In this document: positions 1 through 13,763 of the stretch, piece by piece | Numbering within the stretch: the stretch's first letter is position 1 | How the letters are laid out: the number at the start of each line of letters is the position of its first letter | IMG/VR virus record: IMGVR_UViG_3300043313_000558 | DNA from: a virus | Lineage: Duplodnaviria; Heunggongvirae; Uroviricota; Caudoviricetes | Reading direction: 5' to 3' (one strand) | DNA length: 64,000 nt | Translations under genes and position numbers: made by a program | The notes under the pieces: model-generated | Seen by the model: only the letters and a program-made list of their open reading frames with translations | Databases searched by the model: none | Told to the model about the DNA's origin: nothing

Positions 1-143
1 GCGGTCGGAACCGCGTAGCCCTCCTCGGCACCAGGATCCGGGGCGAGGTTGGGGTACCAGGTGGGATCGGTGTACCCCATGTCCTCCAGGGTCTGCTCTC
101 CACTGCCGTACGTCGACGGCGTGAACATCACCCCGGCCATCTG
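1..143 (-). CDS. hypothetical protein, 5' part only (gene continues past left edge)
   Basis: ATG at 143 preceded by purine-rich RBS (aggaagaag); reverse complement of 1-143 reads MAGVMFTPSTYGSGEQTLEDMGYTDPTWYPNLAPDPGAEEGYAVPTA without a stop. Confidence 0.4.
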
Positions 144-240: not shown

Positions 241-477
241 TCACGACAGCTCGGGTGGCCGAACCGACTCCGCCTGGTGGGTGGCCCTCGGGTCCTTGTT
301 CGGCACCGCGAAGACGGCACCACCGGAGACCAGGGCGATCACCGCGGCGGTGACCCACTCGTTGGTCATCACCTTGGAGCCGCCGTCGCTGGTCTCCAGC
401 AGGGCAGCGCCGATGGCGGTCAGGAAGGGGACCAGAATCGCGGTTATGGCCTTGTAGTACGGGGCGATGGTTTCCAT
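241..477 (-). CDS. holin-like small membrane protein (78 aa, two hydrophobic helices)
   Basis: internal Met METIAPYYKAITAILVPFLTAIGAALL..VTAAVIALVSGGAVFAV of the 241..585 ORF; start lies 3 nt after the stop of the upstream M15 peptidase gene. Confidence 0.5.
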   Translation of the reverse strand: METIAPYYKAITAILVPFLTAIGAALLETSDGGSKVMTNEWVTAAVIALVSGGAVFAVPNKDPRATHQAESVRPPELS

Positions 478-479
478 GT

Positions 480-1064
480 TCAGCGTCCGTCCTTGTAGAT
501 CTTCGGGTTGGCCTTGGTCGCGCCGGAGCCCATGTCGATGTGCTTGACCTTCTTGGAGACCGAGCCGTAGCCGATGTGGGTGCACACCTGCCAGCTCTTC
601 ACCTTGGTGGTCGAGTAGTAGGGCTGGGTGTCACTGGCCAGCCCGGACAGGTGGCGCGAGGTGGCCGAGCCACCGATCGCCTTGTTGTGGCTGGCACACC
701 GGCAGGCCGAGACGACGGTGAAGCTGCGGCCACTCTTGGTGCGGTACTGCTCCATCATCTGGAAGGCCTTGCGCTTGTGCCAGATCCGCTGGCAGGAGGA
801 GTACTTGCCCCCACACCGGCAGCGGACCTCGGTGAAGGAAAAGTGCGCGCTGGCGGTCGGCTGACCCGCCTTACGCCGGGCCTCGGACTTCAGCAGGGCA
901 GCCGAGGTCTTCGCCCCCACGCTGCCGTCCACGCTGAGCGCGCTGCCCAGGTTCCAGCCCGCCTGGAAGTTCTTCACGCAGGTCTTGTACTCGCTGGTGG
1001 TACGAACCCGCCAGCCGAGGTTGCGCAGGATCTTGGTGGCCTGAGCTTGGGTGAGGTTGGCCAT
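480..1064 (-). CDS. endolysin: N-terminal peptidoglycan-binding domain + peptidase M15 (VanY/DD-carboxypeptidase-fold) domain
   Basis: N-terminus ATKILRNLGW..LSVDGSVGAKTSAALL resembles PG_binding_1; C-terminus ..ACRCASHNKAIGGSATSRHLSGLASD has the SxHxxGxAxD zinc-ligand motif of M15 peptidases. Confidence 0.7.
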   Translation of the reverse strand: MANLTQAQATKILRNLGWRVRTTSEYKTCVKNFQAGWNLGSALSVDGSVGAKTSAALLKSEARRKAGQPTASAHFSFTEVRCRCGGKYSSCQRIWHKRKAFQMMEQYRTKSGRSFTVVSACRCASHNKAIGGSATSRHLSGLASDTQPYYSTTKVKSWQVCTHIGYGSVSKKVKHIDMGSGATKANPKIYKDGR

Positions 1065-1072
1065 CAGGCGTC

Positions 1073-1240
1073 GTCTCCCTTCACGTGCGGGTCGACCTGA
1101 TCCACCAGGTCATCCAGGTCCTCGGTGTCCAGATCCTCGGGGATCTCCTCACCGGACAGGTCGAGCTCGCCGATGTCCTCCTGGTTGGGATCGGTGTGCT
1201 CGTCGTCGTCGATCACGTCGTGGTCGGGCTGGTCGCTCAT
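1073..1240 (-). CDS. small acidic protein (55 aa)
   Basis: MSDQPDHDVIDDDEHTDPNQEDIGELDLSGEEIPEDLDTEDLDDLVDQVDPHVKGDDA; ATGA overlap with upstream stop and TGATG overlap with lysin start; unlisted small ORF, hand-translated. Confidence 0.35.
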
Positions 1241-2637
1241 CGGCGGTCCTTCTTCTTCAGGGTCACAGTGGTCTCCGGATCCATCTTCTTGAGCAGCTTC
1301 TTGGTCGAGCGCTGGTTTTGTGGGAACTGGTTAGCTGCCACACCGCCGATCACACCGGCCGTGGTGCCCTCCATGATCCGCTTCACCGAGGTGGTCATGT
1401 TCAGCTTCTTGGCCACCAGCGTGGGCGCACCGACGAACCGGCCCGACTTCAGGTCCCGGGTACGTACTGAGGTCAGCGACTCAGTACGGGTGCTGTCGTC
1501 GTTGATCAGAGTCCCAGGCATCTCCATGAAGCTCTTGGAGACCGCACCGGTGGTGCTGGGGAGCTGACGAGGTCCGGTGCGCATCAGCTTGCGCTTGGGC
1601 CGCCGGGTGGTGTTCAGCACCCGCTGCGGGTTGCCCTGCTGCAGCTTAGGCAGCTCGGACAGGAAATGGATCGAGCCCCGGTGGTCGGTGATCGCCGCGA
1701 CACCCGGGATACGGGCTCCTTTGGCCATCGCCAGGTTCTTCTTGACGTGGGACTTGTTGCGGTTGATCTCGTAGCCGTGCTTGCCTGCCACACCCGCAGC
1801 AGCGATCCCGACCCCAGCCACGCCCACCTTGCGGGAGATCTTGGCCATGTCCCCGTAGGTCTTGGCGAAGTAGCGCTCCTGACCGGCTGATCCGTGCAGG
1901 GCTCCCACCTTGGCGGCGTGCTCCTTGGACCGACCAGCGAAGATCTTGTTCCGCTCACTGGCCAGCACACCGGTGGACTTCTCCGGCTTCACGTCCGGAA
2001 CCCGGTGCTTGCTGGGCTGGATCGTGTATCCGCCCGCCTTGGGGTTCATCTTCATCGCCTGGTGCAGGCTGGCTGCGGAGCGCTTGGACCACTTCTTGCC
2101 CTGGCGATCCAGCAGCGTGCTGACCCCACCACCGAGCACCGCCGTGCTGGCACCACCTGCAGTGATCGCATCGGCCTTGAAGTGGTCGCGCTTAGCGGCC
2201 TTGTGGACGCTCTTGCGCTTGCTGTGCTGGTAGGCCCCGGCCCCGACCAGCGCAGCACCACCTGCCAGCGCCACGTTGGAGGCCTTACGGCCGATGTTCA
2301 GGTGCCGGATGATGTCGGTCTCGGATGCACTGCGCCCGGCGAACTCCCCTTGCCGAAAGGCCTGCTTGCGGGTGGGGTTCTCGGTGCCCTTGGCCTTGGG
2401 CTTGAGGGTGAAGGTGTCGAACACGTGGTGAGCGTTATGCCGGTAGCCGAACTCACCAGCTCCGTAGGCCTTACCGGCGATCTTCGCCTTCTCCTTACGC
2501 CCTGAGGCGGTCTTGACGTCGGCCAGGTTGGCCCTGGACTTGGTGCCGGGAAGCCCACCGCCGACCAGACCGACCGTGCCCAGGGTGGTCCCGGCACCGA
2601 CCATCGTGCCGGAGTGGTCCTTCTTCTTGACAGGCAT
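1237..2637 (-). CDS. Lys/Gly/Ala-rich 466-aa protein; possible virion or head-morphogenesis protein
   Basis: long ORF immediately downstream of the portal-like gene; strongly basic and glycine-rich; no catalytic motif recognised. Confidence 0.45.
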   Translation of the reverse strand: MPVKKKDHSGTMVGAGTTLGTVGLVGGGLPGTKSRANLADVKTASGRKEKAKIAGKAYGAGEFGYRHNAHHVFDTFTLKPKAKGTENPTRKQAFRQGEFAGRSASETDIIRHLNIGRKASNVALAGGAALVGAGAYQHSKRKSVHKAAKRDHFKADAITAGGASTAVLGGGVSTLLDRQGKKWSKRSAASLHQAMKMNPKAGGYTIQPSKHRVPDVKPEKSTGVLASERNKIFAGRSKEHAAKVGALHGSAGQERYFAKTYGDMAKISRKVGVAGVGIAAAGVAGKHGYEINRNKSHVKKNLAMAKGARIPGVAAITDHRGSIHFLSELPKLQQGNPQRVLNTTRRPKRKLMRTGPRQLPSTTGAVSKSFMEMPGTLINDDSTRTESLTSVRTRDLKSGRFVGAPTLVAKKLNMTTSVKRIMEGTTAGVIGGVAANQFPQNQRSTKKLLKKMDPETTVTLKKKDRR

Positions 2638-4584
2638 CTACTTGCCCTTCTTCTTCGGCACGATCTTCTTCTTGGGTCCGACGGTCTTGGCGTTGGCCTG
2701 CTGCCGGGCCTGGGCTTCCTTGAGCTTGCCCAGGAACTTCTGACGGCGCAGGTCGGCGTCCTTGCCCTCCTGATCCCGCTTGAAGTCCTTCTCCTTGCCC
2801 TGCTGGTCGCGCTTGAAGTCGGCTTCCTTGCCCTTCTGGTCCCGCTCGTGGTCGACCTGCTTGAACTTGTTGTCGACCTCCTTGCCCTGAAGATCCAGCT
2901 CCTTGCCCTTCAGGTCCATCTCGTTGGTGGCCTGAGCGTTGGGGTCCTGGGCAGCCAGCGCCTGCATGTCGGCCTGGTGCTGCACCTCCATCGCCTGCTG
3001 CTGCTCCATCTGCGCCTGCTGGGAGCCCATCACCTCCGGGTCGACAGCGGCCCGTGCCTGCCCGCGAGCCTGGCCCACGGCCTCGTTCTCCATCTGGTCC
3101 TGGTGCGGGCTCTCAGAGGCCATCTGGGCCTGCTCTGGGGTCATCCCGCCTTGGACCATGCCGAACTTCTGGTTGGAGCCCATGAACTCCATCGCGGTCT
3201 GCTGCTGAGCCATCTCGCGCTTGGCCTCCAGCACCTCGTCCGGGATGGCAGGCAGGTGAGCGACCTCGCGCAGGAACTTCTCCATGTCCGGGTCGGGGAA
3301 GAACTGCATGCCCAGCCCGGCCATGGACGTCATGAACCCGGCCAGCTCGGCCAGGTTGGGCGGGTCCACATTGGTCGGACGCAGCTTGGGCAGCTCTTCC
3401 AGCTGCCAGTTGTTCAACTCGAACAGGCGGGGGATGGCGTGCCGGTTGAACACGTCCGCGATGGCCGTGGTGATGGAGTTCAGCGCAGAGCGGAAGATGC
3501 CGGTCTTGTCCACGTGCATCGCGTAGGAGCCGGTGCCCTCGTGGCCGAGCAGCAGGAAGTCGGCCATGGTGACCATCAACATCCGCTGCTCGTAGCGCTG
3601 GATCAGCTCGTTGGTGTTGAAGCTCTTACCGCCTGAGCTGCTCATCAGCTCGAAGCGGAAGAGCTCCTTGCCCTTCTCGTCGTACTCCAGGGGGAGAACA
3701 AGGCCCTCGTGTTCGTCGCGCCGAACGTTTTGGACCATTTTCTTGAAGCTCTTGTAGACCTTGTTCTCGTTGGTTCCCTCGGTCGCCTTCATGTACGAAG
3801 AAGGCAGCATGGCTACCGGCATGCCAGCGAGGTCACGCTCTACCCCGATCGCCTCGAACTCCTCTAGGCGCTTCTTGAAGAACCAGGGTCGGTACGCAGT
3901 ACGCAGGATCGAGGTGCCCTCGGGGTTGCCCTTGTGGATCCCGGTCCTAAAGAGCAGCGAGCGCTCGATCGGGATGACGCAGGTCTTGTAGTACGGGGGC
4001 GGGATCTGCACATAGGCCTTCACCCCTCCGCTCTCGTCGAAGACCCAGCGCAGGTGGGTCTCCTGAGCACGGATCGGGATCTTCCGCCAGCCGATCCGAC
4101 CGTCGGTGTACCGGCTGCGCTTCTTGGGGTCCTTCTCCTGCGGGCCGACCCGCTTCTTGTAGACGATCTCGTGCCAGGAGAAGCCGTAGACCAGCATCGA
4201 GAGGATCTCGGAGATCATGTCGTCCCAGGTGTGCGACATGTCCTCCATGCACTCTTCGACGAACTGGACCGCATCCGAGCTCTCCGGGGAGTTGTCGTCC
4301 CCGACCACGGTCCACTCGACCTGCCGGATCAGCTTCTCGATGGAGAACAGCATCGCCCCGATGATCGGGTCGTTCAGGGCCATCTCGCGGAACACCGCGA
4401 TGGCCTTGCGGCCGCGTAGCGCAGGCAGGAACTCCTCGTCGATCATCCCCGCAGCGCGCTTGACCCCGGTGACCCCGATCTCGGTCAGTGGGGAGACCCG
4501 AGTCGGCGCGGAATCCAGGTCGATGGTCAGGTCGTCGTAACGGGAGATGTCCCCGTAACGACCTTGGCCGGACGCGATGGTCAT
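2638..4584 (-). CDS. portal-like protein (648 aa) with highly charged repetitive C-terminal tail
   Basis: size, position downstream of terL in the transcription direction, acidic core and C-terminal D/K/E repeat region (DLKGKELDLQGKEVD..KRDQQGKEKDFKRDQEGKD) typical of portal barrel extensions; RBS acaggagg upstream; assignment is by inference only. Confidence 0.4.
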   Translation of the reverse strand: MTIASGQGRYGDISRYDDLTIDLDSAPTRVSPLTEIGVTGVKRAAGMIDEEFLPALRGRKAIAVFREMALNDPIIGAMLFSIEKLIRQVEWTVVGDDNSPESSDAVQFVEECMEDMSHTWDDMISEILSMLVYGFSWHEIVYKKRVGPQEKDPKKRSRYTDGRIGWRKIPIRAQETHLRWVFDESGGVKAYVQIPPPYYKTCVIPIERSLLFRTGIHKGNPEGTSILRTAYRPWFFKKRLEEFEAIGVERDLAGMPVAMLPSSYMKATEGTNENKVYKSFKKMVQNVRRDEHEGLVLPLEYDEKGKELFRFELMSSSGGKSFNTNELIQRYEQRMLMVTMADFLLLGHEGTGSYAMHVDKTGIFRSALNSITTAIADVFNRHAIPRLFELNNWQLEELPKLRPTNVDPPNLAELAGFMTSMAGLGMQFFPDPDMEKFLREVAHLPAIPDEVLEAKREMAQQQTAMEFMGSNQKFGMVQGGMTPEQAQMASESPHQDQMENEAVGQARGQARAAVDPEVMGSQQAQMEQQQAMEVQHQADMQALAAQDPNAQATNEMDLKGKELDLQGKEVDNKFKQVDHERDQKGKEADFKRDQQGKEKDFKRDQEGKDADLRRQKFLGKLKEAQARQQANAKTVGPKKKIVPKKKGK

Positions 4585-4689: not shown

Positions 4690-5013
4690 TTACTGCTGCT
4701 GGCTGTTGTCGTCTCCGGGGTGGTTCTGGCCTTCCTGTTCATGGGCTTCGTTCTGATCCCCGCTCTCGCTCTTCGCTGAGCCCTTCACCACCGAGTAGGT
4801 GGTGGTGGTGCCAGCCAGAAAGCCCGCCAGCAGGCCGATCAGGGTGTTGGTGATGTCAGCGATGTAGCGCGACGGGCCTTCCAGGTCGCTGGCCGGGTTG
4901 ATGAAAGCGAACACCCAGGAGACCACCGAGGTGAAGACCAGCCCGGCGCAGATCGTCCCGGCGATCAGGATTACCAGGATGTCCGCGGTAGGCCGGTCTC
5001 GAAAACGAGCCAT
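4690..5013 (-). CDS. 2-TM membrane protein with charged C-terminus (holin-like)
   Basis: ILVILIAGTICAGLVFTSVVSWVFAF and TLIGLLAGFLAG hydrophobic helices followed by an acidic tail. Confidence 0.45.
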   Translation of the reverse strand: MARFRDRPTADILVILIAGTICAGLVFTSVVSWVFAFINPASDLEGPSRYIADITNTLIGLLAGFLAGTTTTYSVVKGSAKSESGDQNEAHEQEGQNHPGDDNSQQQ

Positions 5014-5375
5014 CAGAAGCCAACGATGTCGCTCAGGTTGCGCTCAGATCCAGTTGGCACGCTGATGTAGACCGGAGCAGGATCCATCCCCTCCAGGTCG
5101 AAGGTCACTCGGTACTGCCAGTTCACCGGCTTGATGTCGATGTCGTCGGTGGCCATCAGGGTGATCGTGGCCTCGCCGTCCTCTAGGAAAGCGACCACTG
5201 GCCAGGCCGGGATGATCAGCCCGGCACCGGAGTGGGTCAGGAAGTCGGGCAAGGCCTTGAAGATCACCTTGCCCTGCACCGGGGTGGTCTCCATCTGGTC
5301 GTAGTCGTCCAGGACCAGCGAGTAAAGCTTGATGTGGATGACGCCCAGACCGACGCCGGTTGGTAGTGCAGCCAT
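5013..5375 (-). CDS. fibre-associated protein; paralogue of the N-terminal domain of 8660..9421
   Basis: VIFKALPDFL...LMATDDIDIKPVNWQYRVTFDLEG aligns with VYFTPTAEFL...LVATDNPNLEPVDYTYEVSFDLEQ of the 266-aa ORF. Confidence 0.5.
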   Translation of the reverse strand: MAALPTGVGLGVIHIKLYSLVLDDYDQMETTPVQGKVIFKALPDFLTHSGAGLIIPAWPVVAFLEDGEATITLMATDDIDIKPVNWQYRVTFDLEGMDPAPVYISVPTGSERNLSDIVGF

Positions 5376-5377
5376 GA

Positions 5378-7405
5378 TCAGGTCCCTATGTCTTCGACGA
5401 CGAACTGTCCGGGTGAGGTGGCGCTGCCCTGCATGGTGATCACGCCGGTGCCCGAGGCCCGGGCGACGGAGACCTTGAGGACGTGTGAGCCCGCGGTGAA
5501 CTGGCCGATGTAGGTGGCGGTCATGTTGAAGGCGGTGGTCGCCGGTGCCTGGCTGATCGAGGAGACCAGCGAGGTAGCGCCATCACGCAGGATCAGCTGG
5601 ATTCGGTCACCGGCCACAGTGGTGATGAAGTTGGCCCACACGTTCAGCTTGTACCAGCGACCCGCCACACAGGTGATCGTCGTGGTCAGCCCCGCGATAT
5701 CCACCGGGGTGGTGCTGTTGGCGGTGTTGGCGGTGTTCGCGGTGATCTGGCCCATCCCCATGATCCCCAGCGGACGGTAGTCGACCTCGGCGACCTTGTT
5801 GTCCACGTAGTTCTTGGTGGTGGCGTGGTCGGGGTTGACCGGGTCGGCCATCCCGTAGATCTTCTGGCCGTTCATGTTGAAGCTGACCCCGACGGTGATG
5901 TCGCCCATCCCCGCTGGGTTGTAGTCCAGCTTGGTAGTGCGGATCTCGGTCTTGCTGAACGGGTCGGGCGTGCTGCCCCCACTACCGCCACTGAAGGCCA
6001 CCCAGGCGTTGGTCGTACCACCGACCCAGATGTAGCTCAGCCCGGTGTCGGTCTCGTAGATGATCAGACCGTCCTGGACGAAGGTTGGCCGAGTAGAGCT
6101 GGTCACCGTCCACACGTTGGCGGCGCTGTAGACCCACTTCAGCCCGTCCCAGATCGCCAGGGCACGCTGGTTCTGGTTGTAGTACAGCTGCCCAGCCCCA
6201 CGCGGAGTGGGGAAGGAGAACAGCCCGCCGGTGTCGACATGGGTCTGGCAGCGCCAGGTCTGGGAGTCGGTGCCCAGCGTGGCCACCGGGTCGGTCTGGG
6301 TGAAGATCTTCATGTAGCTGGTGGTGCCAGCCAGCACCTTGACCTTGGCACCCTGGGTGACCTTGGCTGCGGTGTTCGCATCGGTAGCCCGGCTCCAGGC
6401 TCCGGCAGCTGCGACGTAGATCCCGTTGTCGAACGCGTTGGTCTGGTTCTTGACCAGGATCCGTTCGGTGGCGCTGAAGGCGTAGCCGTCGATGGTCGAA
6501 GTGCCGGACAGGGTGATGTTGGCGGTGGTCGCACAGGCGACCGGGGCCAGGTACCGATCCCCGCTGGCGGTGAGCACTGTCCCGTTGATCGTGGCCCCGC
6601 TGGCGGCCAGCTGGGTGAAAGTGGCCGCACCGGCCTGGGTGATCCTGGCGACCTCAGTGCCCGCGTTCTTCCAGGACAGGTCGGTGTACAGGATGTTGGC
6701 CTGGTACTTGTCCACCGTCGGCATCTCGTTGCCGGTCATCGGTCGGTCCAGGGCCCACTCGATCTCGCCCACCTGAGCAGCAGCACCAGGAGGTGCGGTC
6801 AGGGTGAACTCCACCTCGGAGAGCTGGTAGAAGCTGTTGTAGGCCTTCTGGATCAGCTGGTCGGGGCTACGGCGCACCTCGTCGACCGTGTTCAGGGTGT
6901 GCCAGCCCAGCCCATGCGGGGCGTAGTTGCAGTAGACCCGCACGCTGACCGACTCGGTCCAGGACACGTAGTAGTGACTGACGATGAACCAGCCGTAGGG
7001 AAAGCCGTAGAAGAAGCCGTTGAAGTTGACGTTGAGGACCACGTAGTTGTTCGCCGCGATGGTGAAGCCGCCCTCGTAGTCCCCGTCGAAGAACTGGTCG
7101 ACCTGGGCGTTGGACAGAGTGCCGAGCAGGGTCCCGCCGTTGCGGTCGTAGATCTTGGCGGTGACGGTCCAGCGCTCCCGGGCCTTGAACATCGCGTCGT
7201 TGAGCGCGCTTTGGTACAGGTGTCGGCCACCGAACGGGTTGGCGTTCATCACCAGGTCATCGTTGGACAAGGTGGCGTACCAACCGTTGCCGTTGCTGAT
7301 GTAGTGCTTGCCGTCGGTGGTGTTGAAGTAGGTGCTTCCGGCAGGCGCGATGGCAGGCGCGGTGGCATAGCGCTGCGCCCCGGTGATGCCGTATCGCTGC
7401 GGCAT
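5378..7405 (-). CDS. tail fibre protein (675 aa)
   Basis: real start MPQRYGITGAQRYATAPAIAPAGSTYFNTTDG at 7405 (ATGA overlap with upstream stop); the first 163 codons of the listed 838-aa ORF are R/H-rich out-of-context read-through; shares YFNT[AT]D and TKNYVD motifs with 7405..8652. Confidence 0.6.
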   Translation of the reverse strand: MPQRYGITGAQRYATAPAIAPAGSTYFNTTDGKHYISNGNGWYATLSNDDLVMNANPFGGRHLYQSALNDAMFKARERWTVTAKIYDRNGGTLLGTLSNAQVDQFFDGDYEGGFTIAANNYVVLNVNFNGFFYGFPYGWFIVSHYYVSWTESVSVRVYCNYAPHGLGWHTLNTVDEVRRSPDQLIQKAYNSFYQLSEVEFTLTAPPGAAAQVGEIEWALDRPMTGNEMPTVDKYQANILYTDLSWKNAGTEVARITQAGAATFTQLAASGATINGTVLTASGDRYLAPVACATTANITLSGTSTIDGYAFSATERILVKNQTNAFDNGIYVAAAGAWSRATDANTAAKVTQGAKVKVLAGTTSYMKIFTQTDPVATLGTDSQTWRCQTHVDTGGLFSFPTPRGAGQLYYNQNQRALAIWDGLKWVYSAANVWTVTSSTRPTFVQDGLIIYETDTGLSYIWVGGTTNAWVAFSGGSGGSTPDPFSKTEIRTTKLDYNPAGMGDITVGVSFNMNGQKIYGMADPVNPDHATTKNYVDNKVAEVDYRPLGIMGMGQITANTANTANSTTPVDIAGLTTTITCVAGRWYKLNVWANFITTVAGDRIQLILRDGATSLVSSISQAPATTAFNMTATYIGQFTAGSHVLKVSVARASGTGVITMQGSATSPGQFVVEDIGT

Positions 7406-8652
7406 CAGCCCACCACCACGACCCGGTAGCCAGCGCCCAGGTTGGGGCTGTAGCGCAGCACGGCGGTGTTGACCGTGGTGGCATCCCAGTCGACCTCCAC
7501 CGCGGTGTACGGGGATGCCCCGTTGAGCACGGTCAGGGAGATGTCGCGGGTGTTCAGGTTGTGGGTGACCGTCTCCGGGCTTGCTGTTCCGCTCAGGCCT
7601 GCAGCGAACTTGCGAGCTCCAGCTGCAGCAGCGATTGCCGCGTTCATCGAGGTGATCGTCGGGATCACTGCGGTGTCCACGGCCACGGAGTCCGCGGCCA
7701 CGGTGATACCGGTGCCTGCCCCCACGTCGAAGGTGTTGGCTGAAAGGGTAAGGCCAGCACCCCCGACGTAGGTTGCCCCACCGGTACCGAACTGGGCATA
7801 GGTGAGGTTGGTGGTGTCGATGGTGATCGGCAGGTTGGTGGTGAGCACCCAGGCGGTGTCGGCCTGGGTAGAGCCCTCCTGCACGAACACACACATGCCC
7901 GCGATCTCGTTAGCGCTGTCCACGTCGGTGGCCCGGTACCAGGCCCCGGACTGAACCACCCAGATCCCGTTCTGGGAGGCGGTGCTCTGGTTCTTCACCA
8001 GCACCCGGTCCTGCACCACGGTGGTGACCCCGTCGATGGTCAGGAAGCCGCTCAGCGCGGTATTGGCCGTGGTGGCCACCCGCACGGCGTCCTTCCAGGC
8101 CAGGCCGAACACGGTGGCGTCCACATAGTTCTTGGTCGCTGCGTCGCTGGGCACGTTGGGCTCAGCCAGGTTGGTGATCTTCTTGGAGTTGAAGGACACG
8201 TCCACGGACGGCACGGCCAGGGCGCTCAGCGGGATGGTGGAGTGCGCGGACGCATCGTGCGCGGGAGTGCCGTGGGTGTGGTCGCTACGGGAGAGCGAGG
8301 AGGCAGAGCCGTTGGCTGAGGCCAGCCCATAGGTGGTCTCGGCGGTGACCGAGCCGAACGCGGGCATCCCGTGCTTGTGGTCCTCGCGGGCGAAGTTGGC
8401 CCCGGTGCCTACTGTCCCGCCATCACCGATCGCCTGGGTGGTCACGGTGGAGGCCGGGGTTGCTCCAGCACCCGCCTTGGCGGCAGTCCAGATCGGCCCG
8501 GTGGTGTTGGTGCAGCAGTACAGCGTGGCGTCGGCGGTGTTGAAGTAGATCTGCCCCAGGACGGGGCTGGCCGGGGCACTGGACAGGTTCTGCACCTGGG
8601 CTTGGCGCAGCTCGTTCTTGGACAGGTCTACGGCCCCGTAGAAGGTCGCCAT
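7405..8652 (-). CDS. tail fibre protein (415 aa), paralogue of 5378..7405
   Basis: N-terminus ..ASPVLGQIYFNTADATLY and ..SDAATKNYVDATV motifs shared with the neighbouring fibre gene; Ala/Thr/Gly-rich beta-type composition. Confidence 0.6.
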   Translation of the reverse strand: MATFYGAVDLSKNELRQAQVQNLSSAPASPVLGQIYFNTADATLYCCTNTTGPIWTAAKAGAGATPASTVTTQAIGDGGTVGTGANFAREDHKHGMPAFGSVTAETTYGLASANGSASSLSRSDHTHGTPAHDASAHSTIPLSALAVPSVDVSFNSKKITNLAEPNVPSDAATKNYVDATVFGLAWKDAVRVATTANTALSGFLTIDGVTTVVQDRVLVKNQSTASQNGIWVVQSGAWYRATDVDSANEIAGMCVFVQEGSTQADTAWVLTTNLPITIDTTNLTYAQFGTGGATYVGGAGLTLSANTFDVGAGTGITVAADSVAVDTAVIPTITSMNAAIAAAAGARKFAAGLSGTASPETVTHNLNTRDISLTVLNGASPYTAVEVDWDATTVNTAVLRYSPNLGAGYRVVVVG

Positions 8653-8659
8653 GGTGCTC

Positions 8660-9421
8660 CTAGGACAGATAGGCCTCTCCGCCCAGGGAGGCGGAGAAGG
8701 TCAGTCGGATGGTGGAGGCACTCAGGTACTCGACGGTGCCGGGAAAGACCTGTTCCTTCAGGGAGTTGACCACGACCACGGAGGGCTGAAAGGTCAGTGG
8801 GTGGCTGATCGTCCAGGTAGTGGAGGCGCTGACCTGGTAGTGCGTGTAGGAGGAGGTGCCCCCGGCCACTGCGGAGACGGTGATGATCGCCTCGCCAGCA
8901 TCACCGAGGGTGACCAGCACCCCCTCACCACGAAAGTCCAGCAGGGAGGCTGCGGTCAGTACCGTGGTGTTGTCCTCCTGGACCATCACAGACCCACCGA
9001 CTCCGGGTACTCCAGGTGGCCCAGGAGGGCCCTGCACGTACCAGATCCCGTTGGCTGCGGGCACCGGGGAGATGTCGGCCAGCTGCCGGTCACTGCCCTC
9101 GGGAACGTCGATGTGAAAGCTGTCCAGGTGGACCTGCTCCAGGTCAAAGCTGACCTCGTAGGTGTAGTCCACTGGCTCCAGGTTGGGGTTATCGGTGGCG
9201 ACCAGCTCCACCTGGCCATCCCCGTTGGGGTCCAGGTAGGCGCTGTAGGCGTGCACCGGGTAGAGCACGTCGTTGGTCGCATCGCGCAGAAACTCCGCAG
9301 TCGGGGTGAAGTAGACCCGGCCCACCACGGGCTGGATCAGCTGCACCCCATTGACCGCGACGGAGTGGCGTAGCCGTATCCGGACGATCCCGGTGCCCAC
9401 GCCGATCGGGAGATCTGGCAT
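8660..9421 (-). CDS. tail fibre-like protein (~253 aa)
   Basis: internal start MPDLPIGVGTG preferred over the ORF start at 9460; contains GPPGPPGVPG triplet and Ig-like beta-rich C-terminus; N-terminal domain paralogous to 5013..5375. Confidence 0.5.
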   Translation of the reverse strand: MPDLPIGVGTGIVRIRLRHSVAVNGVQLIQPVVGRVYFTPTAEFLRDATNDVLYPVHAYSAYLDPNGDGQVELVATDNPNLEPVDYTYEVSFDLEQVHLDSFHIDVPEGSDRQLADISPVPAANGIWYVQGPPGPPGVPGVGGSVMVQEDNTTVLTAASLLDFRGEGVLVTLGDAGEAIITVSAVAGGTSSYTHYQVSASTTWTISHPLTFQPSVVVVNSLKEQVFPGTVEYLSASTIRLTFSASLGGEAYLS

Positions 9422-9463
9422 GTCCTCAGTCTCCCAGCGCACGCACCTGACCCTGAGCACAGC

Positions 9464-9499
9464 AAAGCGCCGGGCCCCCCTGCAAAGGCCCGGCGCTTT
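9464..9499 (-). terminator. 13-bp-stem hairpin downstream of the 193-aa gene
   Basis: aaagcgccgggcc / ggcccggcgcttt perfect inverted repeat. Confidence 0.4.
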
Positions 9500-9517
9500 A
9501 GCTGCAAATGCTACTGC

Positions 9518-10099
9518 TTACTTGCGCTTGCCCCGACCACGCGGGTCCACGACCGGAGGCTCGCCCTCGACCGGGATCTCGTTGGGAAGGGTGTTGTCGG
9601 GGTGCTCACCCGGATTGCCACCACCAGAGCCAGGGAGGGTGTTGTCCGGGTGCTCTCCGCCACCGCCGGTCTGCGGGTCGTTGGCCTCGAAGCCCGAGGA
9701 GAGGTCATCGAGGCGCTGCTTGGCGCTGTCGATGGTGGACACCAGGGCCTCGGAGTTCGCGACCTGGGCCTCCAGGGCGGCGTTGAGCTCGGTGTTCTCC
9801 GAGGAAGCCGCTTCGAGGGCGTCACGGGTCTCCTGCAGGTTGCGCTCGGCTTCCTGCCGAACCTGGTCGAGCTCGGTGGTGATCGCCTGCTGCAGGCGGT
9901 TGATGGACTCGTTGAGCGGTGCCATGTACTTCTCCAGTTCTGTAGAAACGTGTCGTTCGATGTGCCGTACCGCGGCCCGGATAGCCCGCAGCGTTTCCTT
10001 GTGCATTGCCTTCATGCCCTGCTGTTCTAGCCAGCTGACCATCCGCTCTCCTTGCTCTTGTAGCCAGTCTCCCAGGGCCTGCACGTCAGCCCTGCGCAT
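9518..10099 (-). CDS. coiled-coil protein with Gly-rich C-terminal tandem repeat; possible fibre assembly/chaperone protein
   Basis: heptad-like ELEKYMAPLNESINRLQQAITTELDQVRQEAERNLQE region; C-terminus GEHPDNTLP repeated twice (48-bp DNA period at 9585-9658). Confidence 0.45.
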   Translation of the reverse strand: MRRADVQALGDWLQEQGERMVSWLEQQGMKAMHKETLRAIRAAVRHIERHVSTELEKYMAPLNESINRLQQAITTELDQVRQEAERNLQETRDALEAASSENTELNAALEAQVANSEALVSTIDSAKQRLDDLSSGFEANDPQTGGGGEHPDNTLPGSGGGNPGEHPDNTLPNEIPVEGEPPVVDPRGRGKRK

Positions 10100-10307
10100 C
10101 CATCAGGACGTGCCCGAAGTCGTGGTCGGCCTTGACCGTGATGATCTGGGAGTCGATCAGCTTGGGCTCCCAGCCACACAGGCAGATGAACGTGGGCTGG
10201 GTGAACAGGCGTTGGTCGTTTGCATCCAGCACGACCGTCTTGACCAGGCCCTGCTCGGTGCAGCCCGACACCAGGCACTGGTAGATGTTCTTCAGGCGCT
10301 TCCTCAT
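10086..10307 (-). CDS. hypothetical 73-aa protein
   Basis: ORF between two fibre-module genes, overlapping the next start; no motif. Confidence 0.3.
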   Translation of the reverse strand: MRKRLKNIYQCLVSGCTEQGLVKTVVLDANDQRLFTQPTFICLCGWEPKLIDSQIITVKADHDFGHVLMDAQG

Positions 10308-10316
10308 GTGCTCCCC

Positions 10317-11576
10317 TTACCTCGTGGCCGCCTTGATGACGGTCCCGCTCAGGTTCTTGATGGTGACCCGGGGGTCATCACAGATGATCTGGCTCTCGCG
10401 GGCCACGAAGATCTCCCGAGGGGCACCACCGAAGGTGTTGTTGTTGCCCCAGAGCAGCACGCCACCGAAGTTGGACTCCAGGCGGGCCAGACCTCGGTTG
10501 CCGCCGAACATGCAGCTGTCCACGGAGATCTCGGTGTTGCCGCTGATCCCCTGGATGCCCTGGCCGCCCTTGAACGAGCAGGCAGTGAAGGCGAAGTTGT
10601 TCGCGCTGCCGTTGAAGCGCACCTGGTAGGACTCGGTGGGGTAGCCGTCCGGGGCATCGAACTCGGTGCCGATGCACCGGGAGTTGTGCCCGTAGGTGAC
10701 CTTGAGCTGGTAGCTCTTGCGCCGCGCACTGATCATCGCGGAGCCGATGACGGACTTGGAGCAGGAGAACTCGATGAAGGGCAGGTCAGCACCCATCCAG
10801 GTGGTGTTGCCGGAGTCCATGAACCCACCACCGAGGAACCACTTGCACTCGGATCCGCCCAGGGTGAGCGGGGTTGCTCCGGACATGGCCTGGAAGTTGT
10901 TGAACCCGCTCATGTCCAGGCCAGTGCCCCAGCCCTTGAAGATGTTGCGCCAGCCCACGAAGGAGCAGTTGTTGAAGTCCCAGTACCACTGCACGTAGTT
11001 GGAGTCGAAGCCCCCAGGAGCCCGAGGCAGGAAGTCCTTGTCACTTCCTGCGCTGAACTGGATGCCCGAGGCCACGAAGTCCCGGCTAACCCCGTTGGCG
11101 GGGTAGCTGTAGCCGGTGTTCTTGTAGAGCACGAACATCGAGGAGCCCGCAGGCCCGGTGTAGGTGATCGTGGGGGCCTTGCCGTACTCGAAGGCCCTGC
11201 CCTGGCTACCACGCCATCTACCAGGCGCAGTGGGGATCTGCACGTTGCAGTAGTGGTTGCGGAAGGCGAACTCCACCTCACCGGTCCAGCCCTGCTTCAT
11301 CTTGTTGGCCAGGTTGGTGAACCGCTCGTTGTCCGAGCTGCCCAGCGAGTCGAACGGGGTGCCGTTGCCGCTGCCCTGGGTGATCGTGCCACCAGAGCCA
11401 GAGCCAGCAGGTCCGGGTGGGCCCATCGGGCCTTCGGGTCCGGGAGGACCTTGTGGACCGGGAGGACCTGCTGGGCCTTGGCTGCCGGTGCCCACAGTGG
11501 GATAGGGCGGTAGGGGGACGAACTGGTCCAGATCGGGATCAAACACCTGCAGGTTGGCCATGCGCTTACCTTTCAT
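10317..11576 (-). CDS. collagen-like repeat + right-handed beta-helix (pectin-lyase-like) tail fibre/tailspike
   Basis: GSQGPAGPPGPQGPPGPEGPMGPPGPAGS Gly-X-Y run; C-terminal repeats with N/G/C-rich beta-helix turns (NNFAFTACSF, NTEISVDSCMFGGN). Confidence 0.6.
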   Translation of the reverse strand: MKGKRMANLQVFDPDLDQFVPLPPYPTVGTGSQGPAGPPGPQGPPGPEGPMGPPGPAGSGSGGTITQGSGNGTPFDSLGSSDNERFTNLANKMKQGWTGEVEFAFRNHYCNVQIPTAPGRWRGSQGRAFEYGKAPTITYTGPAGSSMFVLYKNTGYSYPANGVSRDFVASGIQFSAGSDKDFLPRAPGGFDSNYVQWYWDFNNCSFVGWRNIFKGWGTGLDMSGFNNFQAMSGATPLTLGGSECKWFLGGGFMDSGNTTWMGADLPFIEFSCSKSVIGSAMISARRKSYQLKVTYGHNSRCIGTEFDAPDGYPTESYQVRFNGSANNFAFTACSFKGGQGIQGISGNTEISVDSCMFGGNRGLARLESNFGGVLLWGNNNTFGGAPREIFVARESQIICDDPRVTIKNLSGTVIKAATR

Positions 11577-11590
11577 GGGGGTTGGTAGAG

Positions 11591-11950
11591 CTAAAGGTCC
11601 TTGTGCCGCTCCTCATCGTGGAAGATCTCGCTGCGCTCTCCTACGTAGGCGACATCCACCTCGGTTTGGCCCTTGTGCTGAGCAAAGCTGATCTCGTACA
11701 CCTTGGTGCAGCTCTCACACCAAAGCAGCAAGGTGATGGAGTGCCTGCGCACGCTGTGCCCATGAACACGCCCATCGTTGCGGATGTCGACGTCACCGCC
11801 AGCCAGGGCGATGTACACGTCCTTGATCGGCTGGTCCTCCATCCGGACCTCAGCATGGCAGTGATCGATGTGCGTGAAGGTCCCTTCGCACCCCGGACAT
11901 CGCAGCGCAGGGGGCGCGAACATGTTCGAGGAGTCGAAGGACAGGCTCAT
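11591..11950 (-). CDS. Cys/His-rich small protein (119 aa)
   Basis: RCPGCEG..HIDHCH...CESC putative metal-binding ligands. Confidence 0.4.
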   Translation of the reverse strand: MSLSFDSSNMFAPPALRCPGCEGTFTHIDHCHAEVRMEDQPIKDVYIALAGGDVDIRNDGRVHGHSVRRHSITLLLWCESCTKVYEISFAQHKGQTEVDVAYVGERSEIFHDEERHKDL

Positions 11951-12324
11951 GTGCTCTTGATCCTGCGCAGCTTGACCCGCTCATGGCCGACCAGGGAGCG
12001 CCAGTTGTGGATCGCGGTGTCGGTGTTGGAGGTGACCGGCTCGGCATGGGCCCAGTTGCCCTTGCGGTCCTGCACCAGGATCCAGTGGGTGGGCTTGGGT
12101 TGGGCTTCGGCCTCGGCCCTCCACCGGGCGTAGCGGGCCTCCTCGGCCTCCTTGAACACCCTGGAGTTCCAGGTGATCTTGCGGCCCTCGCACTCGATGT
12201 AGTCGAGGGACTCCATGCCCATGTCGGAGGCGTAGATCGCGGCCTCGATGGCCTCGGGCAGCGAGTCGAAGCTCTCCACCACGTACTGCCCGTAGACGTG
12301 GGCGAACTTCAGGGCCTTGGCCAT
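11947..12324 (-). CDS. hypothetical 125-aa protein
   Basis: ORF with ATGA coupling to both neighbours. Confidence 0.4.
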   Translation of the reverse strand: MAKALKFAHVYGQYVVESFDSLPEAIEAAIYASDMGMESLDYIECEGRKITWNSRVFKEAEEARYARWRAEAEAQPKPTHWILVQDRKGNWAHAEPVTSNTDTAIHNWRSLVGHERVKLRRIKST

Positions 12325-12512
12325 CAGGAGGCCTTGCGGTGCGAGATCTCGAAGTAGGTGTTGGTCAGGTAGCGGATCACCGCGCTCATCGACTCCATGT
12401 TCAGCTCCTGCTGCAAGGCCCGGATCCTGGCCTTCTCGGTCGGGCTCAACCTCACGAATACCAGGTCTGAGCGGGTCTCACCGTCGATGGTGATCTCCTT
12501 GCCTCGGGGCAT
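12324..12512 (-). CDS. ribbon-helix-helix (CopG/Arc-like) DNA-binding protein
   Basis: internal start MPRGKEITIDGETRSDLVFVRLSPTEKARIRALQQELNMESMSAVIRYL: beta-strand followed by two helices typical of RHH. Confidence 0.45.
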   Translation of the reverse strand: MPRGKEITIDGETRSDLVFVRLSPTEKARIRALQQELNMESMSAVIRYLTNTYFEISHRKAS

Positions 12513-12583
12513 CTGCTTCTCCTTTAGGTGGGGCTCCGCCAGGCCGCAGGCCCGCATCACGCAACGACCTGGCGGAGGTCTTG

Positions 12584-12787
12584 TTAGTGCCAGCGATAGT
12601 GCTCTGCCCAGTCGTACTCACTGTCGTGCTTGCGTCCAGTGAGCAGCAGCTGCTCATGGGTGGGCCAGGTGTAGTAGGAGTCGGTGAAGTTGGGGTGCAT
12701 GGCGCACCGGATCACCACCACGTTCTCGTCCCCCAGGCGCTCGTAGGCGCAGTTGAGGGCGTGCTGGGGGTCGTCGCGCTCACTCAC
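12584..12787 (-). CDS. hypothetical 67-aa protein
   Basis: ORF only. Confidence 0.3.
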   Translation of the reverse strand: MSERDDPQHALNCAYERLGDENVVVIRCAMHPNFTDSYYTWPTHEQLLLTGRKHDSEYDWAEHYRWH

Positions 12788-12975
12788 TTCTTCCTGCCCT
12801 TGAAGTCGTTGAACAGCTCGAAGCCCTCGATGGCCTTGGTCAGGGCCTGCGTGGCCTGGACCTGTGCTGCTCCCAGCAGGGCTTGGGCTGCCTGTGGGGC
12901 ATCCCGGTCGTACATCTTCTGGGCCTCGTTGAGCAGATGATCTGTGGTCATCGAGCTCCAGGGTGCCGGGATCAT
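12784..12975 (-). CDS. hypothetical 63-aa helical protein
   Basis: ORF only. Confidence 0.3.
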   Translation of the reverse strand: MIPAPWSSMTTDHLLNEAQKMYDRDAPQAAQALLGAAQVQATQALTKAIEGFELFNDFKGRKK

Positions 12976-13090
12976 CTGCTACCTACGCTTCCGTAACCTA
13001 CGCAGACGTAACTTTCGGTTGCGTAGGTTTGGTTTGGTGTGGTGGTGTATGCCGAAGCACCACTGCCGAAGCAACCACGCCAGGGGATCA

Positions 13091-13267
13091 CGAGATCACC
13101 TTGACCCGGATGACCACGATGCCCGGGTAGCGAGCCTGGAGTGCATACAGAGCTTGGTCGATACCTTCGTATACCGTGCTGGCCGCCAGGAGAGCTCCGC
13201 AGCCCTTGGCACCCTCGGTCACCCGGTACCGAAAGCCGTAGGGCAGCTGTTCCACGATCGCGCTCAT
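13091..13267 (-). CDS. hypothetical 58-aa protein
   Basis: hand-translated MSAIVEQLPYGFRYRVTEGAKGCGALLAASTVYEGIDQALYALQARYPGIVVIRVKVIS; ATGA overlap with the upstream gene stop. Confidence 0.3.
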
Positions 13268-13488
13268 AGCTGCTCCGCACTCACCAGCGGGTAGTTCCGG
13301 TTGGTGATGAAGTACTCGGCACGGGTGTACTCCTCATCCACTGGACTGAAGTAGTGCCACCGGTGGTCGCACACGCTGCAGATCCAGAACAGCTCAGTAC
13401 CTCGGTTGGGCAGCATCCCGATCGGTATCGCATCGTGGCCACACTCAGGACAGCTCGTCTTGGCGCTCTTCATCATCGACCTCCGCAC
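13264..13488 (-). CDS. zinc-ribbon small protein
   Basis: CPECGH...CSVCDH two CxxC pairs. Confidence 0.4.
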   Translation of the reverse strand: MRRSMMKSAKTSCPECGHDAIPIGMLPNRGTELFWICSVCDHRWHYFSPVDEEYTRAEYFITNRNYPLVSAEQL

Positions 13489-13687
13489 ACTTGTAGCCGT
13501 ACCAGAACGTTGGTGCCCATCCGGCTACCGGGACACCATCGATGAACGCGGTGAGGTTGCCTGCGGAGTCCACTTCCATCTCCTCGGCTTCGACCACGTC
13601 GTAGTCCTCCCTGGTGTTCACCTGCCAGGTCTTCACTTGTTCTTGGTCCCGATGTCCGCACCCACACTCGGGCTCTTCCGGTACCAC
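13445..13687 (-). CDS. acidic 80-aa protein
   Basis: ORF; CGCGH motif near N-terminus. Confidence 0.3.
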   Translation of the reverse strand: MVPEEPECGCGHRDQEQVKTWQVNTREDYDVVEAEEMEVDSAGNLTAFIDGVPVAGWAPTFWYGYKCAEVDDEERQDELS

Positions 13688-13763
13688 TCAGGTGTTGCCA
13701 GGTCATCCTTGCGCTTCGCGCTCTTCGGCTTCTTGGTTTCTTTCTTGGAGTCCTTGCCCTTGC

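Follow-up and report, generated by a model that had tools for sequence, protein, structure and literature searches.

A portal gene set apart from the terminase gene in an uncultured phage of about 83 kb, with evidence for gene blocks at two junctions of its head module

Introduction

Cluster AL Arthrobacter phages have a canonical gene order with large insertions (PMC5513430), so an interrupted canonical order is not new. In Kovu and Ottawa, for example, the insertions lie between terL and the portal gene and between the protease and capsid genes (PMC5513430). In other clusters of Arthrobacter phages, lysis genes are found within the head module and tail genes beside terL (PMC5513430).

The stretch of DNA analysed here, called the window, covers 64 kb of the ~83-kb genome of an uncultured phage, which was recovered in four independent assemblies (JGI, Logan and two from ENA). 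The tail of this phage is long and non-contractile, and with 64% G+C the phage probably infects an actinobacterium. As in Cluster AL (PMC5513430), terL is followed in canonical order by the portal, protease, capsid and tail genes, with multi-gene inserts in between. The portals of Cluster AL phages (Laroye and Salgado; also Kovu and Ottawa) are the closest among cultured phages, with 43-44% identity to the annotated Arthrobacter phage proteins, and the capsid and cement proteins are related as well. However, the Cluster AL inserts consist of SSB, nuclease and RNA-ligase genes, whereas those described below carry fibres and lysis genes. The Cluster AL terL has no detectable similarity to the one found here, the 1075-aa and KG466 genes described below are missing from that cluster, and its genomes are smaller, about 60 kb.

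In T4, the order of genes 17-18-19-20 places the sheath and tube genes between the large terminase and the portal, and such a separation is therefore compatible with normal assembly. T4 belongs to an unrelated lineage, and its gap of ~3 kb is filled by those tail sheath and tube genes rather than by fibres.

Results

The 648-aa protein belongs to a family of phage portals

The gene at the centre of this study is encoded on the minus strand, as are all the features listed in this report. Its ATG is at position 4584 and is preceded by AGGAGG.

2638..4584 (-), portal protein, 648 aa, stop codon included (Pfam, PHROG and PDB homologues)
3208..4488 (-), portal core, residues 33-459 (homology to solved portals)

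The protein matched the Pfam family Portal_Mu (PF06074) with 114.7 bits for a cut-off of 23.9 (E 7.4e-33). The match spans residues 63-428, that is profile positions 2-325 of 336. A second portal family, PF21919, was also above threshold (31.4 bits, cut-off 27), and the PHROG portal family phrog_113 matched with E 1e-90. The initial annotation, which had called the gene portal-like, left room for a different virion protein and proposed a comparison with portal structures. In a phmmer search of the PDB, residues 33-459 matched solved portals 11bp_A (E 2.3e-73), 9mt4 (2.6e-66) and 9c39 (8e-65), the alignment covering residues 16-450 of the 479 in 11bp_A. The G20c and P23-45 portals were matched more distantly (E 4e-6).

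Among the closest solved portals, 11bp is that of the Pakpunavirus P7-1. P7-1, Bas63 (9mt4) and Sf14 (9c39) are myoviruses of Gram-negative hosts, and their portals are homologous to the present protein over the whole core, with 29-32% identity in Foldseek alignments. Among more than 3000 portal homologues, both portal Pfam domains were precomputed in 120 out of 120 of the matches listed. An alignment of 35 homologues contained 146 invariant columns, all inside residues 37-486.

Evidence at the level of the fold is weak, because the AF2 model computed from a 35-sequence alignment was poor (mean pLDDT 54, pTM 0.35). Used as a Foldseek query, this low-confidence model nevertheless returned portal or neck entries as its top 40 hits, with probability 1.00 for the first 13 and TM-scores of just 0.25-0.37.

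Judged by sequence homology, the ORF at 2638-4584 is thus a true phage portal protein, of the Mu gp29 / P23-45-type family. As had been noticed from the sequence, the core is acidic, though mildly so (residues 31-460, pI 5.85), and is followed by a repetitive tail, to which we return below. It was also said to be the only portal candidate, and indeed no second portal gene was present in the window, nor in the sequence read from the ~19 kb outside it. By analogy with its family, the protein would form a dodecameric ring, through which the terminase encoded at 14822-16327 would pump DNA into the head.

The terminase gene and the terL-portal gap

The stop codon of terL precedes the portal start by 10,237 bp, in agreement with the distance of about 10 kb first estimated.

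14822..16327 (-), large terminase subunit, 501 aa (PHROG, PDB nuclease match, Walker motifs)
11591..14782 (-), about 11 small ORFs of 55-137 aa with no known function (ORF list)
4690..5013 (-), predicted membrane protein, 107 aa, immediately before the portal gene (hydrophobic residues 7-41)

Among 50,697 records of cultured phages, terL found only two matches, both weak. PHROG 9 matched its residues 70-173 (E 1e-7), and the single sequence matched the nuclease domain of the G20c/P74-26 TerL in the PDB with E 1e-5. With a profile of the clade, the latter match improved to E 3e-10, over residues 288-447. The Pfam Terminase_6C model stayed below cut-off on the single sequence (19.9 for 22.6). 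A Walker A motif (GSRGLSGKS) and a Walker B motif (LILDEIDE) were recognized, in which G68, G71 and K72, and D159 and E160, respectively, were invariant in 8 homologues. On these motifs and matches, the protein is a large terminase, with ATPase motifs and a C-terminal RNase H-like nuclease domain.

The initial annotation placed regulatory genes and a fibre cluster in the gap. The fibre-like cluster was recovered, as described in the next section; a regulatory role of the small ORFs at 11591-14782 was not supported, since they gave no Pfam match at cut-off, and only weak, sub-threshold Zn-ribbon matches. At the corresponding position, three related contigs (L012, L022 and L035) also have a comparable small-gene block, of 1.9-2.6 kb. 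For the 107-aa protein, Pfam gave a sub-threshold DUF389 match only.

A fibre-like cluster between terL and portal

Seven genes make up the fibre-like cluster, which occupies 5013..11576 (-).

10317-11576 (-), fibre-like protein, 419 aa, with a collagen-like Gly-Pro tract
between the 419-aa and 193-aa genes (-), 73-aa protein
9518-10099 (-), 193-aa protein, coiled-coil-like
8660-9460 (-), 266-aa protein
7405-8652 (-), 415-aa protein, phrog_2647
5378-7405 (-), 675-aa protein
5013-5375 (-), 120-aa protein

None of these proteins matched Pfam. In PHROG, they matched tail-fibre, tail-protein and 'head decoration' families, and the labels of their cultured homologues are just as diverse: head decoration, capsid decoration, tail fibre or hypothetical. 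These genes could then encode head fibres or a capsid decoration, and so belong to the head module rather than to an inserted tail-fibre cassette. The best match of all, between the 415-aa protein and phrog_2647 (E 7e-56), is to a 'head decoration' family, and homologues in Phrappuccino, GMA6, E3 and PSS2 bear head or capsid decoration labels, by annotation only. However, the same proteins match tail-fibre families too, and gp88 of Rhodococcus phage E3 is labelled tail fibre in one record (again by annotation only). The collagen-like Gly-Pro tract of the 419-aa protein is typical of tail fibres. Among relatives, the analogous block of contig L036 includes the tail-fibre chaperone LtfC, and the homologues in contig L037 lie upstream of terL beside minor-tail-like genes. 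We regard head fibres as a rather unlikely alternative, under which part of what is here called an insert would belong to the head module.

A lysis cassette and the KG466 gene follow the portal gene

Downstream of the portal gene, the window contains five further genes, the last of which runs off its end.

1237..2637 (-), K/G/A-rich basic protein of 466 aa, here KG466 (ATG right after the portal stop)
1064..1240 (-), highly acidic 58-aa ORF between KG466 and the endolysin (gene call in four assemblies)
480..1064 (-), endolysin, Peptidase_M15_3, 194 aa (PF08291, phrog_894)
241..477 (-), holin-like protein, 78 aa (hydrophobic segments at residues 8-30 and 40-60)
1..140 (-), first part of a gene for a 332-aa protein, cut by the window edge (contigs L003 and L024)

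The ATG of KG466 directly follows the TAG stop of the portal gene. The protein had been described as Lys/Gly-rich, and its composition bears this out (G 11.8%, A 11.8%, K 11.4%, R 7.3%; pI 10.9). It matched nothing in Pfam or PHROG, nor any cultured phage by tblastn, and its family is small and uncharacterised, with 178 cluster representatives. The S78 protease gene is followed directly by a KG466 homologue in contigs L036 and L037, and in contig L039 the two form a fusion, so that the link to the protease consists of two neighbourhoods and one fusion. No partner domain was detected by Pfam on nine other long members of the family. KG466 has no homology with the other K/G-rich sequences of the genome, namely the 543-aa protein encoded after the protease and the N-terminus of the protease; the likeness is compositional. 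AF2 was confident for residues ~170-265 only, and Foldseek with this model gave nothing significant, the top hits, at best a lead, being ClyA-type alpha-pore-forming toxins (E >=0.49). KG466, whose gene begins right at the portal stop and whose family adjoins the prohead protease, with one member fused to it, is predicted to be head-associated and most likely head-internal.

The initial annotation passed directly from this protein to an M15 endolysin with a holin-like neighbour. The endolysin was borne out by PF08291 (52.6 bits, cut-off 23.2, E 5.6e-14) and phrog_894 (E 1e-17), but the two genes are not contiguous: all four assemblies have a gene call for the D/E-rich ORF of 58 aa, which had been missed. 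This ORF matched no family. The 78-aa protein next to the endolysin has two hydrophobic segments, and matched no described holin family in Pfam or PHROG. Its homologues occupy the same post-portal slot in related contigs. Those of L010 and L035 come straight after an endolysin of the amidase type, and no endolysin was identified beside those of L019 and L038. Together, the M15 endolysin and the 78-aa protein form a putative lysis cassette, in which the latter would play the role of holin.

The remaining head and tail genes lie in canonical order

Past position 1 of the window, contigs L003 and L024 continue with genes for the 332-aa protein, the 1075-aa protein, a MuF-like protein (688 aa), a Peptidase_S78_2 protease (328 aa), the 543-aa protein, a scaffold-like protein (277 aa), a cement protein (PF09956) and the major capsid protein. 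The search for this last gene in the rest of the genome, suggested at the outset as a check, was thus successful (phrog_1005, E 1.8e-54), and the gene occupies its canonical place. An HK97 gp10-like connector, a tail tube and a tape measure of 1942 aa were also located. The 1141-aa ORF at 60570-63995 is the C-terminal part of this tape measure, which begins outside the window.

For the 1075-aa protein, neither tblastn against cultured phages nor Pfam and PHROG gave a match, and positions 1-9500 of the window matched no cultured phage by megablast. No promoter-like site was detected in positions 1-17000, terminator-like sites were no commoner there than in shuffled sequence, and a tRNA scan found none.

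It is very probable that the portal is genuine, and that a canonical head order is interrupted by gene blocks at two junctions. The suspicion of an unusual head module was therefore right as to the two interruptions, but not as to the relative order of the genes, which is the canonical one. The genes keep the order terL, portal, MuF-like, prohead protease, scaffold, cement, capsid, connectors and tail, the head-assembly genes lying on one strand with one long late direction of transcription. Under this reading, the junction between terL and portal would have gained 10.2 kb of small ORFs and fibre-like genes. The junction between portal and the post-portal gene that the clade conserves, encoding ~1000-1270 aa, would have gained 3.5 kb, comprising KG466, the 58-aa ORF, the endolysin, the holin-like gene and the 332-aa gene. 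Such a placement would lead to co-expression of lysis and host-recognition genes with the late structural genes.

The two junctions vary among relatives

The distance from terL to portal was compared among related contigs. The two genes abut, with a gap of 12-49 bp, in four contig lineages (L015, L016/17, L018 and L021). The gap is ~0.7 kb in L037, 1.9-2.6 kb in L012, L022 and L035, and 8.3 kb in L036, where it contains a fibre cluster unrelated to that of the window. The second junction varies as well. In L015, L018, L037 and L039, the portal gene is immediately followed by the homologue of the 1075-aa gene. A lysis cassette, with an endolysin of M15 or Amidase_2 type, separates them in L010, L035 and the P0002 contig, and a homologue of the holin-like gene does so in L019 and L038.

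Because the contents of the junctions vary among relatives, and because in distant relatives terL abuts portal and portal abuts the 1075-aa gene, both junctions are best read, on these comparisons, as hot spots of insertion or exchange. The preference for insertion here over deletion in the relatives follows from parsimony on an unrooted set of about a dozen contigs.

It could be, conversely, that the split arrangement is ancestral and that deletions produced the tight terL-portal-1075-aa adjacency. Cluster AL relatives in culture also hold genes between terL and portal (PMC5513430), and several lineages have small-gene blocks of ~2 kb there. However, different lineages have non-homologous inserts: the fibre cluster of L036 is unrelated to that of the window, the endolysin is of the M15 type in some lineages and of the Amidase_2 type in others, and it is an SSB gene that Kovu has in its terL-portal gap. 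Repeated independent gain fits such non-homologous inserts better than shared ancestry, and we find an ancestral split improbable.

Much less probable still is an assembly chimera of different phages as the source of the unusual order. The window does come from metagenomic assemblies, and its G+C content dips slightly, to 0.55-0.60, at 12.9-14.4 kb. Against this, the same order and identical proteins were recovered independently by JGI, by Logan and in two ENA assemblies, relatives with 86-93% portal identity have a similar layout, with large fibre-type genes upstream of the portal and a variable slot downstream, and the genes from portal to holin-like are tightly packed or overlapping.

Finally, that the 648-aa protein is some other virion protein, the true portal being elsewhere, is hardly credible: apart from the low-confidence AF2 model, it has in its favour only the odd site, 10.2 kb from terL and beside lysis genes, while its score with the curated Pfam portal model is about five times the cut-off, solved portals match the whole core, a portal homologue comes directly after terL in the four related contig lineages, and no other portal-family gene exists in the window or in what was read of the remaining genome.

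Neither distance from terL nor a neighbouring lysis cassette is a ground to doubt portal calls in this clade. A full head and tail module is now mapped for a lineage of ~83-kb soil phages whose portal has more than 3000 homologues in metagenomes. Exchange of host-recognition and lysis genes would take place at the terL/portal and portal/post-portal hot spots, and this may be of use to studies of host-range evolution, or to engineering.

A conserved C-terminal extension of the portal

The solved portals of P7-1, Bas63 and Sf14 (479-488 aa) stop ~30 residues past the core, whereas the 648-aa protein runs for ~190 further residues.

2641..3204 (-), portal C-terminal extension, residues 461-648 (composition, repeats, AF2 and homologue alignment)
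2719-2916 (-), charged repeats of 11 residues, portal residues 557-622 (lag-11 autocorrelation)
2641-2688 (-), polybasic end, portal residues 633-648 (composition)

This tail, first noted as K/E/D-rich, is repetitive and rich in K, D, E and Q. A Q/M/A-rich linker is followed by the repeats, detected as a peak of similarity autocorrelation at a lag of 11 residues, and then by the polybasic end, with 8 Lys in 16 residues. AF2 predicted a helix at residues 550-632 (pLDDT ~80; 72-82 in 10-residue blocks from residue 561 onward). The extension is clade-wide: among 121 aligned sequences, the tail measures at least 100 aa in 120 (range 99-241), and 114 have the polybasic end. The extension is probably a long helix that reaches inside the capsid and carries a DNA-binding basic tip.

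More tentatively, and as a rather doubtful proposal, the portal extension (100-240 aa), KG466 and the ~1000-1270-aa post-portal protein may form a specialised internal apparatus at the portal vertex. If so, the extension would be a P22-like inner tube or a DNA anchor in a long-tailed phage, and KG466, together with the large post-portal protein, would be packaged in the head as internal or ejection proteins, a head-internal set previously undescribed for siphophages. For structural work, concrete targets are offered by the conserved portal tail and by the KG466 family with its link to the protease.

In P22, a C-terminal portal barrel of ~15 nm has been described, thought to project into the capsid (PMC4992974); the helix predicted here would measure ~12 nm by comparison. 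The likeness lies in the long C-terminal alpha-helix past the crown (residues 550-632 in the AF2 model). Beyond the general portal fold, the two proteins have no kinship in sequence or fold. No P22-family HMM matched the 648-aa protein in the Pfam scan, and the P22 procapsid portal came out of Foldseek, queried with the low-confidence model, with E 0.44 and probability 0.08. Unlike the P22 barrel, the tail described here has an 11-residue repeat, is very poor in hydrophobic residues and ends in a poly-Lys tip. At the DNA level, a 33-bp tandem repeat is present at 2752-2846, inside the region that encodes it.

Identity of the portal gene

The 648-aa ORF at 2638-4584 (minus strand) starts with an ATG at 4584, just behind an AGGAGG, and by sequence the initial annotation was correct in calling it portal-like. 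Pfam Portal_Mu (PF06074) matched it at E 7.4e-33 (114.7 bits, cut-off 23.9), with almost the full model spanned, the cut-off of PF21919 (P23-45 portal family) was also exceeded, and PHROG 113, "portal protein", matched at E 1e-90. Among all PDB sequences, the top matches were solved portals (E 2.3e-73, 2.6e-66 and 8e-65; residues 33-459), which Foldseek names as those of Pakpunavirus P7-1, Bas63 and Sf14; the portals of G20c, P23-45 and P74-26 followed at about E 4e-6. In cultured phages it is matched best, with 43-44% identity, by the annotated portals of five Arthrobacter phages (Kovu, Waltz, Laroye, Salgado and Ottawa). Among the candidates scored, 3147 proteins reached E <= 1e-10, which makes this a large family, and both portal Pfam domains were present in 120 of 120 homologues among the matches listed. 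The AF2 model is poor (mean pLDDT 54), and each of its 40 best Foldseek matches is a portal or neck entry. The protein does not belong to the P22 portal family. A wrong portal assignment, the alternative raised at the outset, gained nothing: neither a confident non-portal fold nor a canonical portal elsewhere turned up.

Genes around terL and portal

All convincing window genes are on the minus strand, so that transcription runs from 64000 to 1. Apart from the portal itself, the genes concerned are, in that direction:

14822-16327, minus: candidate terL (large terminase subunit), with 10,237 bp between its end and the portal start
11591-14782: about eleven small ORFs, between terL and portal
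5013-11576: seven fibre-like genes, between terL and portal
4690-5013: 107-aa membrane protein, between terL and portal
1237-2637, minus: KG466, a basic K/G/A-rich protein of 466 aa
1064-1240, minus: 58-aa ORF, very acidic, flanked by the very basic KG466 and by the endolysin
480-1064: Peptidase_M15_3 endolysin (52.6 bits, cut-off 23.2)
241-477: 78-aa protein with two hydrophobic segments

The gap of about 10 kb and the fibre cluster that the initial annotation had placed between terL and portal are real, but its "regulatory" genes are not supported, as the small ORFs at 11591-14782 gave Zn-ribbon matches only, all sub-threshold. Its order of portal, Lys/Gly-rich 466-aa protein, M15 endolysin and holin-like protein was borne out, with the 58-aa ORF, not mentioned there, in between. 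The portal stop (TAG) immediately abuts the ATG of KG466. The 58-aa ORF (Asp+Glu about 43%) overlaps each neighbour by 1-4 nt and is called in all assemblies. Within the fibre cluster, a mechanical 838-aa ORF (5378-7894, minus) begins at a GTG that lies in the fibre gene before it; both the gene callers and the pattern of overlaps favour a 675-aa product starting at 7405.

The terL assignment holds by sequence comparison, for a gene that is very divergent from cultured-phage terL. The single sequence matched PHROG 9 weakly (E 1e-7) and scored under the Terminase_6C cut-off. A profile of eight clade homologues matched the solved TerL nuclease domains of G20c and P74-26 (E 3e-10, residues 288-447), and the Walker A (G68, G71, K72) and Walker B (D159, E160) residues are invariant among the eight. 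In 50,697 cultured phage records only two weak matches were obtained, one being an annotated Thermus phage TerL. No gene for a small terminase subunit was recognised. Fibre-type genes flank terL on both sides, because a conserved block directly upstream (16349-18829, minus), also present in related contigs L012, L035 and L037, consists of a 128-aa gene, a 244-aa collagen-like fibre, a 109-aa gene and a 341-aa minor-tail-like gene. In L035, whose portal is 63% identical, the terL homologue (L035:5680-7926) has 748 aa and bears an intein (PF14890, Intein_splicing).

The head and tail module beyond the window

Exact-protein look-ups showed the window to be part of contigs of 82.8-83.7 kb. A chimeric origin of the gene order is ruled out, because the independently made JGI, Logan and two ENA assemblies share it identically. 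From window position 1 onward (L003 being a stretch of the same phage), the module comprises:

past position 1, first 140 nt inside the window: 332-aa protein
L003:10364-13591, minus: 1075-aa protein, about 0.9 kb beyond position 1, after the 332-aa gene
next: MuF / SPP1 gp7-like head-morphogenesis protein, 688 aa (phrog_3517, E 8e-11; PF04233 sub-threshold)
L003:15654-16640, next: Peptidase_S78_2 (S78) prohead protease, 328 aa
L003:16640-18271, next: K/G-rich protein, 543 aa
next: scaffold-like acidic protein, 277 aa
next: cement protein, 136 aa (PF09956)
next: major capsid protein (phrog_1005, E 1.8e-54; 47% identity to the Kovu capsid protein)
window 60570-64000: C-terminal part of the tape measure
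window 55.6-60.6 kb: minor tail genes, after the tape measure

The major capsid gene, which the initial annotation proposed to look for elsewhere in the genome, was thus found beyond position 1, its start about 12.8 kb downstream of the portal stop. It is followed by connectors (DUF6093, HK97 gp10-like), a tail tube protein, chaperones and the 1942-aa tape measure. The genome order is canonical (terL, portal, MuF, protease, scaffold, capsid, connectors, tail), interrupted by additional genes at two of its junctions. The 1075-aa protein had no Pfam, PHROG or cultured-phage match; it is conserved after the portal throughout the clade, at least 11 contigs carrying a homologue (939-1268 aa), and may be an internal virion protein.

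Between the two connector genes, an HNH_3 endonuclease is called on the opposite strand of an ENA contig (L006:1230-1631), and is absent from the JGI and Logan gene calls of the same phage (including L007). Either a mobile HNH polymorphism or a mere gene-calling difference could account for this. Non-structural genes of the window, including replication genes (21896-24520, 27082-28320, 30027-31619 and 53493-54413, minus), encode a DNA polymerase III alpha-type polymerase (PHP, DNA_pol3_alpha and finger domains), a DnaB-like helicase, an AAA ATPase and a Band_7 protein. A scan of the window for tRNA genes found none.

Two junctions vary among relatives

Homologues of the reference genes were mapped on 20 related contigs.

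Gap between terL and portal, with its content
12-49 bp: L015, L016/L017, L018, L021 (portal identity 44-55%); no content
about 0.7 kb: L037; a single reverse-strand gene
1.9-2.6 kb: L012, L022, L035; small genes
8.3 kb: L036; fibre cluster and LtfC chaperone, non-homologous to the window fibres
10.2 kb: window; the small ORFs plus the fibre-like cluster
more than 10 kb: P0002 contig, L038 (portal identity 93% and 86%); large fibre-type genes

L037 has its homologues of the window 415-aa fibre upstream of terL instead. The second junction, from the portal to the 1075-aa gene, also varies: the two overlap or abut in L015, L018, L037 and L039, are separated by small genes (1.0-1.8 kb) in L036, L022 and L016, and lie 3.5 kb apart in the window and 3.9 kb in the P0002 contig, which have the M15 endolysin type in common. 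An Amidase_2-type endolysin followed by the holin-like family of the window occupies this place in L010 and L035 (insert of 5.7 kb in L035); in L019 and L038 the holin-like gene is represented there by a homologue, and no endolysin was identified at that junction. Because the inserted content is non-homologous from lineage to lineage, the most economical reading is that of two hot spots repeatedly gaining or swapping cargo, a direction of change that we infer.

Such layouts have precedents. In T4, tail sheath and tube genes lie between gene 17 (terL) and gene 20 (portal). Among the Arthrobacter phages of Klyczek et al. (PMC5513430), those of Cluster AL (Laroye and Salgado, which rank among the best cultured portal matches of the window) retain the canonical order despite large insertions, with five genes separating terL and portal and eight the protease and capsid genes; a lysis gene lies between terminase and protease genes in Cluster AT, and large tail genes lie upstream of terL in Cluster AQ (PMC5513430). 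The Kovu and Ottawa genomes show the Cluster AL pattern at both places, and the window resembles it in having genes between terL and portal. Given these precedents, the arrangement is one more example of a pattern already known from related actinobacteriophages. The head module suspected at first to be unusually arranged does contain inserted genes, but its canonical order is kept and the pattern was familiar already. Some residual interest of the locus comes from its clade, soil phages of about 80 kb marked by the conserved giant post-portal gene, the KG466 family and a tailed portal, and having no close cultured representative.

The portal C-terminal tail

The tail (residues 461-648) has three parts: an acidic, Q/M/A-rich linker (461-545), about six 11-residue repeats of the type D-F-K-R-D-Q-x-G-K-E/D-x (557-622), and a terminus in which 8 of 16 residues are Lys. 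The repeats give a similarity autocorrelation peak at a lag of 11 residues, and the DNA has a 33-bp repeat at 2752-2846. AF2 predicts a single helix for residues 550-632 (pLDDT about 80), which would be about 12 nm long. When the window protein was aligned with 120 homologues (n=121), tails of at least 100 residues were found in 120 (range 99-241, median 166), a polybasic end in 114 and the lag-11 signal in 35. In contrast, the solved relatives (479-488 aa) and the Kovu portal (484 aa) have no such tail. An inward-pointing helical barrel of about 15 nm is described for the P22 portal (PMC4992974), and it is plausible, by analogy, that the tail has a comparable function.

The KG466 family

KG466 (11.8% G, 11.8% A, 11.4% K; pI 10.9) had no match in Pfam, PHROG or cultured phages, and only 178 relatives came up when 1.84 billion cluster representatives were searched with a profile. 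The family core of about 300 residues is stand-alone in some proteins and lies within proteins of up to 1061 aa in others. The structure prediction for KG466 is confident only for helices around residues 170-265, with no significant fold match.

Prohead proteases work inside the procapsid in HK97-type assembly. In L036 and L037 the gene directly behind the S78 protease is a true KG466 homologue (29-30% identity, E 2e-15 to 5e-20), with common motifs including GILGFR, IIRHMK and PWPK. In L039 a fusion protein carries the core N-terminal to the S78 protease domain, and its gene takes the place of the protease in a module that is otherwise canonical (portal, 1024-aa protein, MuF, KG+S78, scaffold, cement, capsid). 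Because the family adjoins or fuses to a protease acting in the procapsid, and the KG466 start abuts the portal stop, we infer with modest confidence that KG466 is head-internal.

The N-terminal ~140 residues of the S78 protease and the 543-aa protein are also K/G/A-rich, with short Gly/Ala hydrophobic segments as in KG466, without being homologous to it; the resemblance is compositional. The opening ~25 residues of the 543-aa protein (MPYKSDAQRRYLH...) are also found, with 79-85% identity, in viral contigs that are otherwise unrelated.
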